Source: Escherichia phage vB_EcoS_IME347. From it: a DNA stretch of 50,048 nt. A model generated the notes under the pieces. That model saw only the letters and a list, made by a program, of their open reading frames with translations, had not been told where the DNA came from and did no database searches. Made by a program: the position numbers and the translations under genes. Of the stretch, positions 5,977 to 47,686 are shown in pieces (the first letter of the stretch is position 1; each line of letters starts with the position of its first letter). The stretch lies in the sequence record MH051918, one strand, 5' to 3'.

Positions 5977-6026
5977 ATAGCACGAATTGCTAAAACTTGC
6001 TCAGGGGCATTTGTTATAGTGTCCCT
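5976..6026 (+). promoter_or_regulatory. intergenic motif module (AATAGCACGAATTGCTAAAA + hairpin with TGTTATAGT)
   Basis: Motif after stop TAA; inverted repeat ggggca..gtccc around TGTTATAGT. Confidence 0.5.
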
Positions 6027-6590: not shown

Positions 6591-7174
6591 TGAGCAAAGT
6601 AATCATTCTCAACGCGCCGCCAGCATGTGGCAAAGACACGATAGGTTCAATCATCGCGGATATGAATCAGATTTATGGCGTTCGCATGTTGAGCTTCAAA
6701 GCGCCGATGTTCGAGATCGCCCGAGCTATCCTCGGTGATGCGAACTTTGATTATTTCATGTTCCTTTATAACGATCGGCTCCATAAGGAAAAGCCCGATT
6801 CCATTCTGAACGGTAAAAGCCCGCGCGAGTTCATGATCTGGATTAGCGAGGCAATCATTAAGCCAGAATTCGGCAATGATTATTTCGGGCGTCGAATGGT
6901 TGAGGCTGTCAAGTCAGGCACTGCCCCGGCGATTATCACGGACGGCGGATTCACTGAAGAGACAATCGCACTAATTGAAGCTGGTATTCAGGTTCACGTC
7001 TGCCGACTGCACCGCGACGGATTCACGTTTGAAGGCGACTCGCGAAACTATCTTCACCTGCCTGTGGGCTGGCAAGGCGTAAACGGCTACACCGAAGAAG
7101 ATTTCCAGTTACGTGACGGTGATCCTGATTACACTGCCAGCGTGATTACCGGGAAATACCTGCGTCACTTCTAA
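6590..7174 (+). CDS. P-loop kinase, deoxynucleoside-monophosphate-kinase-like (194 aa)
   Basis: N-terminal IILNAPPACGKDT resembles the GKDT P-loop of phage dNMP kinases (T4 gp1 type); identified by eye, not by search. Confidence 0.5.
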   Translation: MSKVIILNAPPACGKDTIGSIIADMNQIYGVRMLSFKAPMFEIARAILGDANFDYFMFLYNDRLHKEKPDSILNGKSPREFMIWISEAIIKPEFGNDYFGRRMVEAVKSGTAPAIITDGGFTEETIALIEAGIQVHVCRLHRDGFTFEGDSRNYLHLPVGWQGVNGYTEEDFQLRDGDPDYTASVITGKYLRHF

Positions 7175-7224
7175 TAGCACGAATTGCTAAAAACTCGGCG
7201 GGGTAAGCTGTTATAGTTACCCCA
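7174..7224 (+). promoter_or_regulatory. intergenic motif module (AATAGCACGAATTGCTAAAA + hairpin with TGTTATAGT)
   Basis: Motif overlaps stop TAA at 7172-7174; inverted repeat ggggtaagctg..agttacccc. Confidence 0.5.
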
Positions 7225-7441: not shown

Positions 7442-7645
7442 ATGAGCAACACAATCAAACTTCGCACGACTCACGCCGATTGCCCTTGGATTACTCCGGG
7501 CAAGATTTACGAGGCCGAATTGGTTGCGAAAGATGGATTTGACGGACTGTATCGGCTGAAGAATCCAGACTTCGGAGAGGTGCTCACTGCAATTGAGAAC
7601 TCCTGTCATTTGGGCGGGGAAAGTTGGGAAGTAGTCACCGAATAG
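7442..7645 (+). CDS. hypothetical early protein (67 aa)
   Basis: Closely follows the previous ORF; contains the ITPGKIYE motif shared with ORF 4726. Confidence 0.45.
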   Translation: MSNTIKLRTTHADCPWITPGKIYEAELVAKDGFDGLYRLKNPDFGEVLTAIENSCHLGGESWEVVTE

Positions 7646-7692
7646 CACGAATTGCTAAAAGTTCCGCAAGGGCATTTGATAGAATGCCCTTA
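7641..7692 (+). promoter_or_regulatory. intergenic motif module (AATAGCACGAATTGCTAAAA + hairpin with TGATAGAAT)
   Basis: Motif overlaps stop TAG; inverted repeat caagggca..tgccctt enclosing TGATAGAAT. Confidence 0.5.
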
Positions 7693-7718
7693 TTGAAACG
7701 AAGCAAAGGAAAATAGAA

Positions 7719-7928
7719 ATGAAACCAGCAATTTTCGAAGCACGTCGCACTTATGGCGCAATCCTCTCCGGGATTCAGTACGAAGTAATGAGCAGTGAGG
7801 ATGGTTACTATATTCAGGTGGACGACGACGGCACTTGCTACGAGGTTATTTTCGACAAGTACGATCCCGATGTTTGCATGTTGAAACATGCGCAGTTAAT
7901 CCGATTCGATCGAGTGGAGGAAGCATAA
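7719..7928 (+). CDS. hypothetical early protein (69 aa)
   Basis: RBS AAAGGAAA; ORF in track. Confidence 0.45.
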   Translation: MKPAIFEARRTYGAILSGIQYEVMSSEDGYYIQVDDDGTCYEVIFDKYDPDVCMLKHAQLIRFDRVEEA

Positions 7929-8260
7929 TGTTACAGGTCAACCTTTCAGAGAAACAGGCTCGCGAGTTTTACGACTTCTGCTTGCGCGTCGCTGGTGTGC
8001 AGGACAATCCAGTAATCCGGGAAATGTTCAGCGTTATTGAACGCCAGATCCTGCCGGACTCAACCAACAAGGCGGAGTTCGCAGCGTGGAGGAGCAAGCG
8101 AATCACTCCGGCAATTGTCGAAGCGTGGAAGCGCAAGAACGGATCGCCTCGCATCGTGTTTGCGAACGGTGAACCTCGTCGAAATATGGGTTGCGTCGTT
8201 CTCGGTGAATATGCTGATCTGGCAACCGGGCGAATGGTAACGGTGATGCATCATGATTAA
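7928..8260 (+). CDS. hypothetical early protein (110 aa)
   Basis: ATG at 7928 overlapping the upstream stop (TAATG), in frame with track ORF 7835..8260. Confidence 0.5.
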   Translation: MLQVNLSEKQAREFYDFCLRVAGVQDNPVIREMFSVIERQILPDSTNKAEFAAWRSKRITPAIVEAWKRKNGSPRIVFANGEPRRNMGCVVLGEYADLATGRMVTVMHHD

Positions 8261-8408
8261 GTTTATCCACACTTTCAAAGTGTCGTCCGGCAAAGAGCGG
8301 AAAGAGATCGTGAAGGTTTACGGGAGTCCGGTTAAGGCAAAAGAGCAATTGCGTTTGCTTGGTGGTCGGATTGATGTTGTTAAACATGTTGAATTCTGGA
8401 GTAAGTAA
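8253..8408 (+). CDS. small basic hypothetical protein (51 aa)
   Basis: ATG overlaps the end of the upstream ORF; the next ORF starts 2 nt after its stop; below track cutoff. Confidence 0.3.
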   Translation: MIKFIHTFKVSSGKERKEIVKVYGSPVKAKEQLRLLGGRIDVVKHVEFWSK

Positions 8409-8409
8409 G

Positions 8410-8640
8410 ATGTTTGGTTTAAGTGAAGCGCATTACAATATTGTCAAACGTGCGGCGCGCGGTCTGAACGACGCAATCAGCGAACTACCGAAGGCCGATC
8501 GAAAGAAGGAGCAAATCGTCATTAAGGTGATCGATAAGCATTACGAACCAGTTGCGACACTGATTAACCGGATGCGCTTCGTTTGGGTGGCGGGCTATCT
8601 CGCCGGGCGCGTAGGAAACAAAAATGGGGACTACGAATAA
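8410..8640 (+). CDS. hypothetical early protein (76 aa)
   Basis: In-frame ATG at 8410 within track ORF. Confidence 0.45.
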   Translation: MFGLSEAHYNIVKRAARGLNDAISELPKADRKKEQIVIKVIDKHYEPVATLINRMRFVWVAGYLAGRVGNKNGDYE

Positions 8641-8834
8641 TGATCGGGAAAGTGGATTGGGTGAAGTGCGAACGGGCATATCACGAAAGCGGGTTCACGG
8701 CGGGTTGCGAATATCAGGTTCTGAAGTTCGATTCCCGGCTCGGAGTCATGACGATCCAGAATGAGCGCGGCGAGCGTTGCTTGGTGAGTCACCCTCACGA
8801 CATAAATTACGGAGAGTTTCGAATTATCGATTGA
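8640..8834 (+). CDS. hypothetical early protein (64 aa)
   Basis: TAATG overlap with the upstream ORF. Confidence 0.45.
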   Translation: MIGKVDWVKCERAYHESGFTAGCEYQVLKFDSRLGVMTIQNERGERCLVSHPHDINYGEFRIID

Positions 8835-8990
8835 CTCGAATCTCTGAACGGTGATATCATTCTTTCCGTAGACAAAAGAGGCGCTTAGGCGCAACGCGCA
8901 TCGCGATAGATGCATAACCTTTGTAGTATCGGGGCGTAGTGGTAAGCCCGCCGCAGACCCGTAAGCGGCTCAAATTCACAGGAGCTTTAC

Positions 8991-9152
8991 ATGAAGCAAG
9001 ATATCAAAATCGAAATCAAAGTAACCCGAAACGGCGAAATCACTCGCTACAAAAAATCACTCAAGCCGGGCGAGGCTGTAATCGGTCGAATCGCTGGTGT
9101 GATGCTGAAGGCGCAGGAAGATGAAGCGATTCACGGTAAAGCTAACGATTAA
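8991..9152 (+). CDS. small hypothetical protein (53 aa)
   Basis: AGGAG 7 nt upstream of ATG 8991; partially overlaps the alternative track ORF 9121..9306, so only one of the two may be real. Confidence 0.3.
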   Translation: MKQDIKIEIKVTRNGEITRYKKSLKPGEAVIGRIAGVMLKAQEDEAIHGKAND

Positions 9153-9308
9153 GCGAATGGGGCGCAGGTGCTCAACCTGCCGCCAAAACTTCGAAACCGA
9201 AGTAAAAGCGAGTTCCGCAGAAGAAGCCGTAGCAAAGGCTAAACTCCAGTCAGGAGCCAATGCGGACACTCACCAGTTTTCAATCAACCTTGTAAGGGAA
9301 ATTTAACC

Positions 9309-9533
9309 ATGACAACTTTTTTATTCATTCTCGCCTTTATCGCTGTTTTCGTGCTTGGTATCGCGTCTGCTCTTCTGCTTATCGCCTTTATCGTGAAGCA
9401 CGACGCCGAAACTGACGAAGGCGTGTGGCTGACGTACAATCGCAGTGAGGATGTTTGGAAGTGCTTCGGTGATTTGCCAGCAGTCTACGCGAAGGCTCAA
9501 ACTCACAAAAAGCCGATACAAAAAATCTGCTAA
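9309..9533 (+). CDS. small membrane protein (74 aa)
   Basis: N-terminal transmembrane helix FLFILAFIAVFVLGIASALLLIAFIV; last ORF before the early-region terminator. Confidence 0.5.
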   Translation: MTTFLFILAFIAVFVLGIASALLLIAFIVKHDAETDEGVWLTYNRSEDVWKCFGDLPAVYAKAQTHKKPIQKIC

Positions 9534-9537
9534 AACT

Positions 9538-9561
9538 AAACCCGCCTCGGCGGGTTTTTTT
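9538..9561 (+). terminator. intrinsic terminator ending the early gene array
   Basis: GC stem cccgcc-tcg-gcggg followed by a T7 run. Confidence 0.7.
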
Positions 9562-9579
9562 ACGTCTGGAGTATGATAA

Positions 9580-9598
9580 AATAGCACGAAATGTTAAA
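9580..9598 (+). promoter_or_regulatory. intergenic motif copy (AATAGCACGAAATGTTAAA) upstream of terS
   Basis: Motif variant between the terminator and the RBS GGAGG at 9604-9608. Confidence 0.45.
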
Positions 9599-9614
9599 CA
9601 TCGGAGGACGTTTT

Positions 9615-10172: not shown

Positions 10173-11744
10173 ATGTTAGTGTGGGAAGAACTGGACGCAA
10201 CGCAAAAGCTTGCGATCAAGAAAATGAGCGAGGCAAGTTTCGAAAAGATGATTCGGATCTGGTTTCAGCTTATTCAGGCGCAGCAATTTAAACCTAACTG
10301 GCATCACCTTTACCTTTGTCACGAGGTGGAGGAAATCATCGCCGGGCGGCGCGGGAATACGATCTTCAACGTAACGCCGGGTTCCGGTAAAACCGAAGTG
10401 TTTTCGATTCACCTCCCTGTGTACGCGATGCTTCGCGTGAACAAGATCCGAAACCTGAACGTGTCGTTTGCCGATAGTCTCGTCAAGCGTAACAGCAAGC
10501 GAGTGCGAGAAATCATCGCATCGAAAGAGTTCCAAGAGTTATGGCCTTGCGGGTTCGCCACGTCCAAAGATGATGAAATTCAGGTTCTCAATCAGGCTGG
10601 CAAGGTGTGGTTCGAACTGATATCCAAGGCGGCTGGCGGACAAATTACGGGTTCTCGTGGTGGCTACATGAGCGACGGATTCTCCGGGATGGTGATGCTT
10701 GACGATATCGACAAGCCGGACGATATGTTTTCCAAGGTCAAGCGAGAGCGTACACACACGCTCCTGAAGAATACAATCCGAAGCCGAAGGATGCACAACG
10801 AAACGCCGATTATCGCCATACAGCAGCGCCTACACGCGCAGGATTCGACGTGGTTCATGATGTCGGGCGGAATGGGGATAGACTTCGAACAGATCTCAAT
10901 CCCGGCTCTCGTTACTGAGGAATACGGGCAATCGCTTCCTGAATGGTTACGCCCTCACTTCGAGAAGGATGTTCTCTCGTCCGAGTATGTGATGATAGAC
11001 GGAGTGAAGCATTACAGCTTCTGGCCTGACAAGGAATCTGTTCACGATCTGATTGCATTGCGAGAGGCAGACCAGTACACGTTCGACTCGCAGTACCAGC
11101 AGCGCCCGATCGCGCTTGGTGGCTCCGTGTTTAACTCGGAGTGGTGGACGTACTACGGAAACAGCCTTGAGGCTGACGAACCAGATCCCGGCAAGTTTGA
11201 CTATCGTTTCATTACGGCTGATACCGCTCAGAAAACAGGTGAGCTTAATGACTACACTGTATTCTGTCTTTGGGGTAAGAAAAACGATAAGGTGTACTTT
11301 ATCGACGGGGTTCGCGGAAAGTGGAAAGCGCCGGAAATGGAGACTCAGTTTAAATCATTCGTTAGCACGGCATGGCGTCACAATAAGTCGATGGGCGTAC
11401 TCAGAAAAATCTACGTGGAGGATAAAGCGAGCGGGACGGGCTTGATTCAGAATCTGGAGAAGAAAACTCCCGTCCCGATCACGCCATTGCAGCGAAATAA
11501 GGATAAGGTTACTCGCGCGATGGATGCGCAGCCAGTAATCAAGGCCGGGCGCGTTGTTCTGCCTGAATCGCATCCTATGCTTTCCGAAATCATCACGGAG
11601 CATAGCGCATTCACATACGACGACACGCACCCTCACGACGATATTGTCGATAACTTCATGGATGCGGCAAACATCGAACTTCTGACGATAGACGATCCTA
11701 TCGAACGAATGAAACGCCTTGCGGGAATGGCAAAGCGCAAGTAA
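10173..11744 (+). CDS. terL: terminase large subunit
   Basis: Walker A TPGSGKTE and acidic Walker B-like LDDIDKPDD in the N-terminal half, with a C-terminal nuclease-like half; 523 aa. Confidence 0.85.
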   Translation: MLVWEELDATQKLAIKKMSEASFEKMIRIWFQLIQAQQFKPNWHHLYLCHEVEEIIAGRRGNTIFNVTPGSGKTEVFSIHLPVYAMLRVNKIRNLNVSFADSLVKRNSKRVREIIASKEFQELWPCGFATSKDDEIQVLNQAGKVWFELISKAAGGQITGSRGGYMSDGFSGMVMLDDIDKPDDMFSKVKRERTHTLLKNTIRSRRMHNETPIIAIQQRLHAQDSTWFMMSGGMGIDFEQISIPALVTEEYGQSLPEWLRPHFEKDVLSSEYVMIDGVKHYSFWPDKESVHDLIALREADQYTFDSQYQQRPIALGGSVFNSEWWTYYGNSLEADEPDPGKFDYRFITADTAQKTGELNDYTVFCLWGKKNDKVYFIDGVRGKWKAPEMETQFKSFVSTAWRHNKSMGVLRKIYVEDKASGTGLIQNLEKKTPVPITPLQRNKDKVTRAMDAQPVIKAGRVVLPESHPMLSEIITEHSAFTYDDTHPHDDIVDNFMDAANIELLTIDDPIERMKRLAGMAKRK

Positions 11745-11750
11745 ACGAGG

Positions 11751-11797
11751 TATAATCAGGGCTGGATTTTTCCAGCCCTTTTTTATTGGAGGTAGTA
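11751..11797 (+). promoter_or_regulatory. late leader module: TATAAT + hairpin + UUUUUUAUU + GGAGG
   Basis: TATAAT at 11751-11756; stem cagggctgg..ccagccc; T-rich run then GGAGG immediately before the portal ATG; same architecture at 15474-15522 and 17154-17205. Confidence 0.5.
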
Positions 11798-15473: not shown

Positions 15474-15522
15474 AATATAGGGATTACCTTTTGGTAGTCC
15501 CTTTTTTATTGGAGGTAATAAA
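15474..15522 (+). promoter_or_regulatory. late leader module: TAATATAG + hairpin + UUUUUUAUU + GGAGG
   Basis: Hairpin gggattacc..ggtagtccc at 15480-15502, T run at 15503-15510, GGAGG at 15511-15515. Confidence 0.5.
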
Positions 15523-17153: not shown

Positions 17154-17205
17154 CTATAGGGACTCATTAATTTGAGTCCCTTTTTTATTATCTGGAGAAA
17201 CCAAA
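17154..17205 (+). promoter_or_regulatory. late leader module: TACTATAG + hairpin + UUUUUUAUU + GGAG
   Basis: Hairpin gggactcattaatttgagtccc at 17158-17180 followed by a T run and RBS. Confidence 0.5.
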
Positions 17206-19843: not shown

Positions 19844-19868
19844 GGGGGCGCTTGCGCTCCCTTTTTTG
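19844..19868 (+). terminator. intrinsic terminator after the major tail gene
   Basis: GC stem gggggcgc-ttgc-gcgctccc followed by a T6 run; an extended -10-like TGTAGAAT lies just downstream. Confidence 0.6.
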
Positions 19869-20580: not shown

Positions 20581-20584
20581 CAAG

Positions 20585-20606
20585 CCGCCTTCGGGCGGTT
20601 TTTTTG
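20585..20606 (+). terminator. intrinsic terminator-like hairpin before the tape-measure gene
   Basis: gccgcc-ttc-gggcgg followed by a T7 run, then GGAGGA RBS. Confidence 0.5.
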
Positions 20607-29684: not shown

Positions 29685-29716
29685 AAAAAAGGCTCCTTAT
29701 TGGAGCCTTTTCTTTT
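29685..29716. terminator. bidirectional intrinsic terminator
   Basis: aaaaaaggctcc-ttat-tggagcctttt hairpin flanked by A and T runs, between convergent genes. Confidence 0.65.
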
Positions 29717-47601: not shown

Positions 47602-47666
47602 CTTTATTTCCTTGTTTTGTCGTTTCGTTTCGATGGGGTGATAATATCAAATCACCCCGAGGTTGT

Positions 47667-47686
47667 TTTAGCAATTCGTGCTATTT
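47667..47686 (-). promoter_or_regulatory. intergenic motif copy (reverse; AAAATAGCACGAATTGCTAAAA on - strand)
   Basis: Exact consensus in reverse orientation, followed on the - strand by hairpin ggggtgat..atcacccc. Confidence 0.5.

Follow-up and report, generated by a model that had tools for sequence, protein, structure and literature searches.

The window analysed here is the whole 50,048-nucleotide sequence of Escherichia phage vB_EcoS_IME347 (MH051918), a T1-like coliphage of the Drexlerviridae whose large terminase (10173-11744) shares 93% protein identity with Sertoctavirus phages and about 90% with T1-like ones. The locus of interest is a gap at positions 8835-8990, located between the ORF at 8640-8834 and the next ORF, which begins at 8991. 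A putative promoter, a leader with short hairpins, three small ORFs (the cargo) and an intrinsic terminator follow one another here, all on the plus strand:

8831..8836, plus strand, -35 hexamer TTGACT (10/12 match with the TG), which includes the TGA stop of ORF 8640-8834
8844..8851, plus strand, spacer motif CTGAACGG, family consensus CTGAnnGG
8852..8860, plus strand, extended -10 TGaTATCAT, with the TG at 8852-8853 and the hexamer at 8855-8860, 18 nt from the -35
8867..8880, plus strand, predicted start CGT (8867-8869) and unpaired 5' tail CGTAGACAAAAGAG; the tail is conserved in alignments A3/A4
8881..8892, plus strand, hairpin P1, GCGC / TTAG loop / GCGC, with compensatory changes in 4/4 pairs (GC, CG, UA and AU types)
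8893..8897, plus strand, linker AACGC(G), near-invariant in alignments A3/A4
8898..8913, plus strand, hairpin P2, GCATC / GCGATA loop / GATGC, with compensatory changes in 4/5 pairs and a conserved loop
8930..8949, plus strand, hairpin P3, GGGC / GTAGTGGTAA / GCCC, lineage-specific
8950..8969, plus strand, hairpin P4, GCCGC / AGACCCGTAA / GCGGC, with CCGTAA conserved on the 3' side of the loop
8970..8990, plus strand, conserved tail TCAAATTC, with the Shine-Dalgarno sequence AGGAG at 8980-8984 and the ATG at 8991
8991-9152, plus strand, cargo ORF 1, 53 aa
9121-9306, plus strand, cargo ORF 2, 61 aa, CxxC..TH
9309-9533, plus strand, cargo ORF 3, 74 aa, DUF7299, with a hydrophobic N-terminal stretch
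9538..9565, plus strand, strong intrinsic terminator AAACCCGC CTCG GCGGGTTT followed by TTTTTT, which closes the unit

The initial annotation described the gap as a non-coding segment with hairpins, and this was confirmed: no plus-strand ORF of at least 25 aa lies inside it. The sole ORF within the gap is on the minus strand (8857-8979, 40 aa, GTG start), and it was rejected as a gene, being unconserved and interrupted by frame shifts and stops among relatives; the frame shifts arise because the indels in the loops are not multiples of three in size. A sense mini-ORF was also rejected, and the gap may serve as a caution to annotators against spurious ORFs. Of the two palindromes pointed out initially, gcatcgcgatagatgc (8898-8913) is genuine and corresponds to hairpin P2, with support from covariation. 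The other, gcgcaacgcgc at 8889-8899, is present in the letters but does not represent a conserved pairing; relatives read GAGCAACGCGC at this place, and the conserved helix nearby is P1, in which 8881-8884 pairs with 8889-8892. Thus one palindrome had been paired wrongly, and the promoter that overlaps the upstream stop codon had been overlooked. The usual motif module had rightly been reported as missing: the 21-nt repeat ATAGCACnnnTTGnTAAAA, present in 31 copies in the window against 1.3 expected, is absent from 7660 to 9581. The single-sequence fold has an MFE of -36.4 kcal/mol with z = -0.06 against shuffles, and therefore the gap is a real but by itself unremarkable observation. Similarly, 7 promoter-like matches were found in 4 kb against 3.9 expected, so that a single match is not significant alone. 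Support for the element comes wholly from the comparison with relatives.

Homologues were gathered via blastn, tblastn and protein-anchored loci, following three routes: a DNA pattern, the adjacent 53-aa protein, and terS-anchored loci with 2.5 kb of upstream sequence. With blastn, 115 phage records matched the gap together with the next ORF at about 70-78% identity, and in these same matches the ORF upstream of the gap gave no alignment at the DNA level. A megablast against the phage collection returned 0 matches. The counterpart in T1 is the gap between ST58 and ST57 (T1 7591-7754); the gap is 70% identical between the window and T1, and the flanking ORFs are 54%, 73% and 60% identical. No features are annotated in the homologous gap in the T1 record or in the other annotated relatives.

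We found that the sequence TTGACT-18-TATCAT with an upstream TG has the form of a sigma-70 promoter and that its architecture is conserved. The TTGAC(N) -35 was invariant in 56 of 56 distinct homologous sequences. The spacer contains CTGAnnGG and measures 17 nt in 46 of the 56 and 18 nt in the other 10, and the -10 hexamers comprise 13 different sequences among relatives, every one of the form TAnnnT. An invariant CGT follows 6 nt past the -10 (51/56) or 5 nt past it (5/56). The combined pattern CTGAnnGG-(0-3)-TAnnnT-(5-6)-CGT was seen a single time in each T1-like locus that contained it, and likewise in the whole BrunoManser genome, and TTGAC-N7-10-CTGAnnGG occurred once in the window against 0.07 expected. 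Judging from the distance to the -10, transcription would start at about 8867-8868, and the element is predicted to fire as a host sigma-70-type promoter. A 2024 re-analysis of phage TLS reported three sigma-70-like promoters only (P01, P51 and P57), a list that omits the homologue of the leader promoter.

Directly behind the promoter, a four-way alignment showed stem sequences that differ yet remain complementary, and RNAalifold recovered P1 and P2 with covariation from 19 diverse sequences. A covariance model of the 5' domain, R1, matched 80 of 90 related sources with one match per source, and every match, including the weak ones at the syntenic position, was on the plus strand and 540-820 nt upstream of terS. 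The match in the window (8865-8915) scored 69 bits with E = 6e-19, and in neither the window nor BrunoManser (complete genome) did R1 find a second copy of the kind seen with putL/putR or nutL/nutR. In P1 and P2 together 98.2% of the cells were paired, compared to 64.4% after shuffling and 25-47% with the partners slid, and compensatory changes were seen in 8 of the 9 pairs, P2 alone having up to 4 pair types and 99.5% paired cells; these counts lean toward the modelled structure, because the alignment was fitted to R1. As the MAFFT alignment placed gaps inside the P4 stem, the P4 pairs were tallied by script, which gave six stem variants, all with standard pairs including G-U, and a loop end that always reads C(C)GUAA. 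The stems of P4 and of the terminators also covary, and 10 G-U wobbles correspond to A-C mismatches on the opposite strand, which favours an RNA read in the gene direction. The 5' tail and the P4 loop each contain a copy of the motif CGUAA(GA). Inspecting the alignments and the output of RNAalifold revealed no covarying alternative (antiterminator) pairing, and no tertiary or antiterminator pairing between the conserved unpaired motifs was seen by eye. Altogether, these sequence comparisons give strong support to an RNA-level structure that is conserved and lies directly behind a conserved promoter. The initial annotation had suggested looking for conserved structure across homologous regions, and this was indeed found, in the covariation of P1 and P2 and in the matches of the covariance model. 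The functions proposed at that time were a small RNA, a pac site or a regulatory structure; a conserved RNA structure behind a promoter fits the first and the last of these, but a pac site was not borne out. In T1 the homologous gap is situated ~7.6 kb inside, and the annotated terminal repeat that starts at pac occupies 1-2800, about 8 kb from the gap, so the pac reading fails. In TLS, pac was mapped near the left genome end (PMC11447400).

More generally, we considered that the locus might act as DNA, for example as a pac site, an origin of replication or an operator bound by protein, with the hairpins being incidental. The CTGAnnGG spacer motif and the invariant CGT at +1 could form a promoter-overlapping operator, and an inverted repeat brackets the -10 in several Tempevirinae (TLS L029 1121-1165, Motto L034, Vc1 L035 and W011D L031), that of TLS being TTGACGGCGT...ACGCCGTGAAC (ACGGCGT...ACGCCGT). 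However, the bracketing repeat is not general, being weak or missing in both the T1 group and the Webervirus-like phages, and the position of the T1 terminal repeat speaks against pac. The helices stay paired through sequence change, and the compensatory changes and strand-specific G-U wobbles point to RNA rather than a DNA recognition site. We regard a DNA-level element as highly improbable.

Some variation was observed in the 3' half of the leader. P3 occurs across the Tunavirinae with the stems GTTGC/GCAAC, GTTGG/CCAAC and GGGC/GCCC, and the Tempevirinae have other hairpins instead. In the Tunavirinae the P3 loop (8936-8945, GTAGTGGTAA; in T1 ATAGTGGTTAA) resembles a tRNA D-loop, and P3-P4 recall the D and anticodon arms without a T arm. 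P3-P4 could be a tRNA remnant; a scan with ARAGORN for tRNA and tmRNA found 0 genes in the window, P3 included. With respect to the 3' end, the leaders fall into three classes. In class A (the window, T1 and TLS) a short P4 without a U-tract is followed by an (A)ACCAUUC tail and the Shine-Dalgarno sequence; the tail of P4 in the window is UCAAAUUC, which has no U-tract and does not make P4 a leader terminator. In class B (Henuseptimavirus-like and others) there is a 9-bp GC-rich stem with CCGUAAGA in an unusually long loop of 17-35 nt, which thus carries the conserved motif, and then a run of four to eight U, with the Shine-Dalgarno sequence and ATG of the next gene at most about 20 nt from this leader terminator. 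In class C (Webervirus-like) the leader consists of the 5' tail, P1 and P2 alone, and a U-rich run follows P2. In loci L196 and L205 the 5' part is different, whereas the promoter and CGT are retained along with the 3' domain (AUCGG, P3 and P4). As judged from these variants, the element is modular and no RNA part of it is universal. Since class B has an intrinsic terminator inside the leader, downstream expression in these phages needs readthrough, and since P4 in the window has no U-tract, attenuation cannot work there as in the terminator-bearing relatives.

Downstream of the leader, the first gene varies between phages, and the constant cargo consists of the 61-aa CxxC..TH protein and the DUF7299 protein. 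Searches of Pfam and PHROGs with ten flanking small ORFs returned only families of unknown function. A strong, A-tract-flanked terminator lies 50-100 nt before terS in 22 of the 22 loci checked; its place in the window is 9538-9557. Of this promoter-to-terminator module, the head is the part that varies least. In five loci ARAGORN detected 1-6 tRNA genes directly after the leader, that is, between the leader and the small ORFs: six tRNA genes in L196 (1320-1967), and others in L179 (2012-2166), L180 (1708-1861), L182 (2091-2166) and L185 (1849-1936). The tRNA types are Arg, Ser, Asn, Trp, Met and Val, and their 5' ends begin 8-10 nt past the conserved leader tail. The 3' side of the leader is thus a slot in which T1-like phages insert tRNA genes.

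The 61-aa protein (9121-9306) was missing from only a few of the related loci scanned; its homologues were taken from the loci, as a word-index protein search gave 2 only. The start of its ORF overlaps the end of ORF 8991-9152 by 32 nt. The protein has the invariant residues G14, C17, C20, T50 and H51 and a basic N-terminal beta-hairpin; with only one CxxC, two copies of the protein may share a zinc site. An AlphaFold model was confident (pLDDT 86.6) and showed a beta-beta-alpha-beta arrangement, for which the best fold matches were to the archaeal/eukaryotic ribosomal protein LX/eL20 (TM 0.64-0.70, E about 0.08-1, not significant). The model gives a hint that the protein may bind nucleic acid. 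The leader might be a translational operator, at which a small downstream protein such as the 61-aa CxxC protein would bind near the Shine-Dalgarno sequence and repress its own synthesis. This would suit the end of P4 lying 10-15 nt ahead of the Shine-Dalgarno sequence in most versions, the constancy of the 61-aa protein with its basic beta-hairpin as a partner, its weak best matches to LX/eL20, and the presence of two CGUAA(GA) motifs, which could suit a dimer. However, the fold matches are not significant, and in the five tRNA-bearing loci the tRNA genes intervene between the leader and the 61-aa ORF, so that control of its Shine-Dalgarno sequence in cis is not the conserved role. As the cargo varies and can consist of tRNA genes, a purely translational operator is unlikely as the conserved role, and we consider it improbable overall.

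The explanation that we favour, with a probability of roughly 45%, is that the gap controls a short, self-contained transcription unit that is widespread among T1-like phages (Drexlerviridae), and that the leader is a co-transcriptional regulator of the attenuator or antiterminator type. Onto the promoter architecture, helices, synteny and terminator-bearing variants described above, the regulatory mechanism would be fitted as follows. Host sigma-70 polymerase would start at the single-copy promoter (TTGAC, 17-18 nt including CTGAnnGG, and TAnnnT), and the transcript would begin at about 8867-8868, at the invariant CGT. Its first ~120 nt would fold into the unpaired 5' tail, P1, P2, a lineage-specific P3, and P4 with its CCGUAA loop. 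The unit would then carry a variable cargo, which is three small ORFs in the window and in some relatives has tRNA genes first, and would close at the strong terminator just before terS. The leader would act during transcription by setting the flow of polymerase into the cargo, and its unpaired motifs would probably be bound by a conserved factor, which may be RNA polymerase itself or another protein of the host or the phage. Action at the level of transcription is most plausible because in class B a terminator is built round the conserved motif, ahead of genes that lack a promoter of their own. A plain 5' stabiliser hairpin is unlikely, since the 5' tail is 14 nt long and unpaired.

A more specific form of the favoured reading would be a riboregulator of the Drexlerviridae, made up of the single-copy promoter and the modular leader, in which a factor on the CGUAA(GA) motifs would choose between termination in the leader and readthrough. 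This factor could be the small CxxC beta-hairpin protein of the unit or RNA polymerase itself, and readthrough would lead into the tRNA and small-gene cargo and perhaps onward to the packaging genes. We consider this form rather unlikely in its full detail; if true, phages would have a new kind of timing switch, one that works without a polymerase or sigma factor of their own.

The main rival is that the leader is a stable small RNA, trans-acting or structural, which would run from promoter to terminator in some genera and be processed in others, with a secondary role in the mRNA. In the terminator-bearing relatives the promoter and the leader terminator bound an RNA of ~110 nt, and in the Webervirus-like phages P2 with its U-rich run bounds one of ~55 nt. 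RNase P cleaves at tRNA 5' ends, and a cut at the 5' end of a following tRNA would free the leader as a separate molecule. The seed regions of enterobacterial small RNAs are often at the extreme 5' end, and the extreme 5' end is the most conserved unpaired stretch of the leader as well. Against a small RNA, P4 is not followed by a terminator in the window, T1 or TLS, where the next Shine-Dalgarno sequence comes within 10-15 nt. In addition, the 5' tail is not shared by all versions, no complementarity to a target was identified, and no copy that would suggest mimicry was found in E. coli genomes or other hosts. Indeed, none of 5,426 E. coli genomes contained a copy of the leader. The 14 pattern matches obtained in 100,044 reference genomes were discarded, as they were in unrelated taxa, scored 12-24 bits after pre-selection and looked like chance. 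When a loose pattern was used on viral contigs, 9 of 100 matches were real, all on contigs of T1-like size. On balance a stable small RNA is possible but doubtful. It is not mutually exclusive with the leader attenuator; the two readings are compatible.

A further alternative is that the leader is a processive antitermination RNA like put, or a nut-like site, with which polymerase would read past the unit terminator into terS, terL and the structural genes. In phage HK022, putL is promoter-proximal and consists of two short hairpins (PMC9378689), and the put RNA makes polymerase terminator-resistant via the zinc-binding domain of beta'. The leader of the window is similarly promoter-proximal with two short hairpins, lies directly after the promoter and needs no particular downstream gene, and HK022 likewise uses unmodified host polymerase. 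Such antitermination would also go with the at least six strong sense-strand terminators of the late region (plus strand, 9538, 11758, 15479, 17158, 19844 and 20582) and with the few canonical sigma-70 promoters seen, only three according to the TLS authors; independence of the cargo and tolerance of tRNA genes would fit a polymerase-bound RNA. On the other hand, R1 found nothing in the HK022 genome (best 6.7 bits, E = 1.2), and the leader stems of 4-5 bp are far shorter than the long bulged put stems and occur in one copy per genome, not two. No boxA-like run (CGCUCUUA-like) was found to be conserved by inspection of alignments A3/A4, and the annotation of the close relative BrunoManser includes neither an N-like nor a Q-like gene. 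In addition, the stretch from the terminator to terS includes a 21-nt repeat module, the late region of T1 is described in the TLS paper as a set of separate promoter-terminator modules, and a leader terminator that bears part of the conserved motif looks like a component of the device, not its target. These points make put-like antitermination unlikely.

Comparison with known RNA families gave no assignment. With Rfam 15 at gathering score the whole window had 0 matches, and a permissive search of 8780-9050 gave only sub-threshold matches in the gap (snoZ155, 18 bits against 43, and a viral pseudoknot, 17 against 33). A truncated, weak match to RT-2 RNA at 9007-9050, inside the 53-aa ORF, reached 17 bits where the gathering score is 40 (E = 0.042) and is probably due to chance. 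Rfam has no put family and finds nothing in HK022, and therefore its silence is uninformative on likeness to put. A literature search on T1-like transcriptomes, small RNAs and antitermination returned nothing relevant and no description of the leader element. A 23-nt direct repeat with 83% identity was noted between 2399-2421 and 8888-8910 (GGCGCAACGCACGTAGCGATTGA / GGCGCAACGCGCATCGCGATAGA; two copies only); R1 gave no match at 2399-2421, and the repeat is probably also due to chance.

The leader of the favoured reading is most readily set beside leaders with promoter-proximal terminators, such as lambda PR'-tR'/6S and those controlled by proteins or ligands. The likeness consists of a constitutive-looking sigma-70 promoter with a hairpin and U-tract within ~110 nt in several genera, phage downstream genes without their own promoter, covarying stems, and conserved junction and loop nucleotides; in contrast to such leaders, the window version has no U-tract, the terminator loop is unusually long and bears a conserved motif, and no antiterminator fold, ligand or regulator was identified. 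Species 1 and 2 of phage T4 are small stable RNAs co-transcribed with the phage tRNA cluster, and in some relatives the leader is likewise non-coding, structured and part of one transcript with phage tRNA genes. However, it precedes the tRNA genes, has its own promoter and persists in phages without them, and no evidence of homology was found. As in the leaders of ribosomal-protein operons, a structured leader stands before a small basic protein with a predicted fold weakly like that of a ribosomal protein, although here tRNA genes can intervene, the fold match is weak and mimicry of rRNA was not seen. The leader thus appears akin in kind to attenuator leaders and phage leader RNAs, but in sequence and architecture it is unlike any of those compared. 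T1-like phages have no gene for an RNA polymerase or a sigma factor. For the regulation of their transcription, a promoter that is conserved in single copy and joined to a covarying RNA directly before the packaging genes offers a concrete and testable handle, and the leader is a candidate new RNA family for the databases.

Two further features of the surrounding DNA were noted. The 21-nt repeat of the Drexlerviridae has as its core the dyad TAGCA-N5-TGCTA and is found, for example, at 969-987, 5977-5995, 7174-7192, 7642-7660, 9581-9599 and 47666-47684. In the early-region copies a TGnTAnnAT lies ~22 nt downstream, so that the dyad centre is near -42 of an extended -10 without a -35, and a variable GC hairpin overlaps the -10; this layout looks like that of activator-dependent promoters, or of operators. 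The function of the repeat is listed as an open question in the TLS paper. The copy at 9581-9599 lies directly after the unit terminator and overlaps the start region of terS, and the packaging genes may therefore have a promoter or control module of their own and be independent of the leader unit. Further downstream, the plus-strand block of structural genes contains strong sense-strand terminators at 11758-11779, 15479-15502, 17158-17181, 19844-19861, 20582-20601 and 29687-29711, and these agree with the modular 'transcripton' picture of the T1 late region, as the TLS paper relates it from the T1 genome study.
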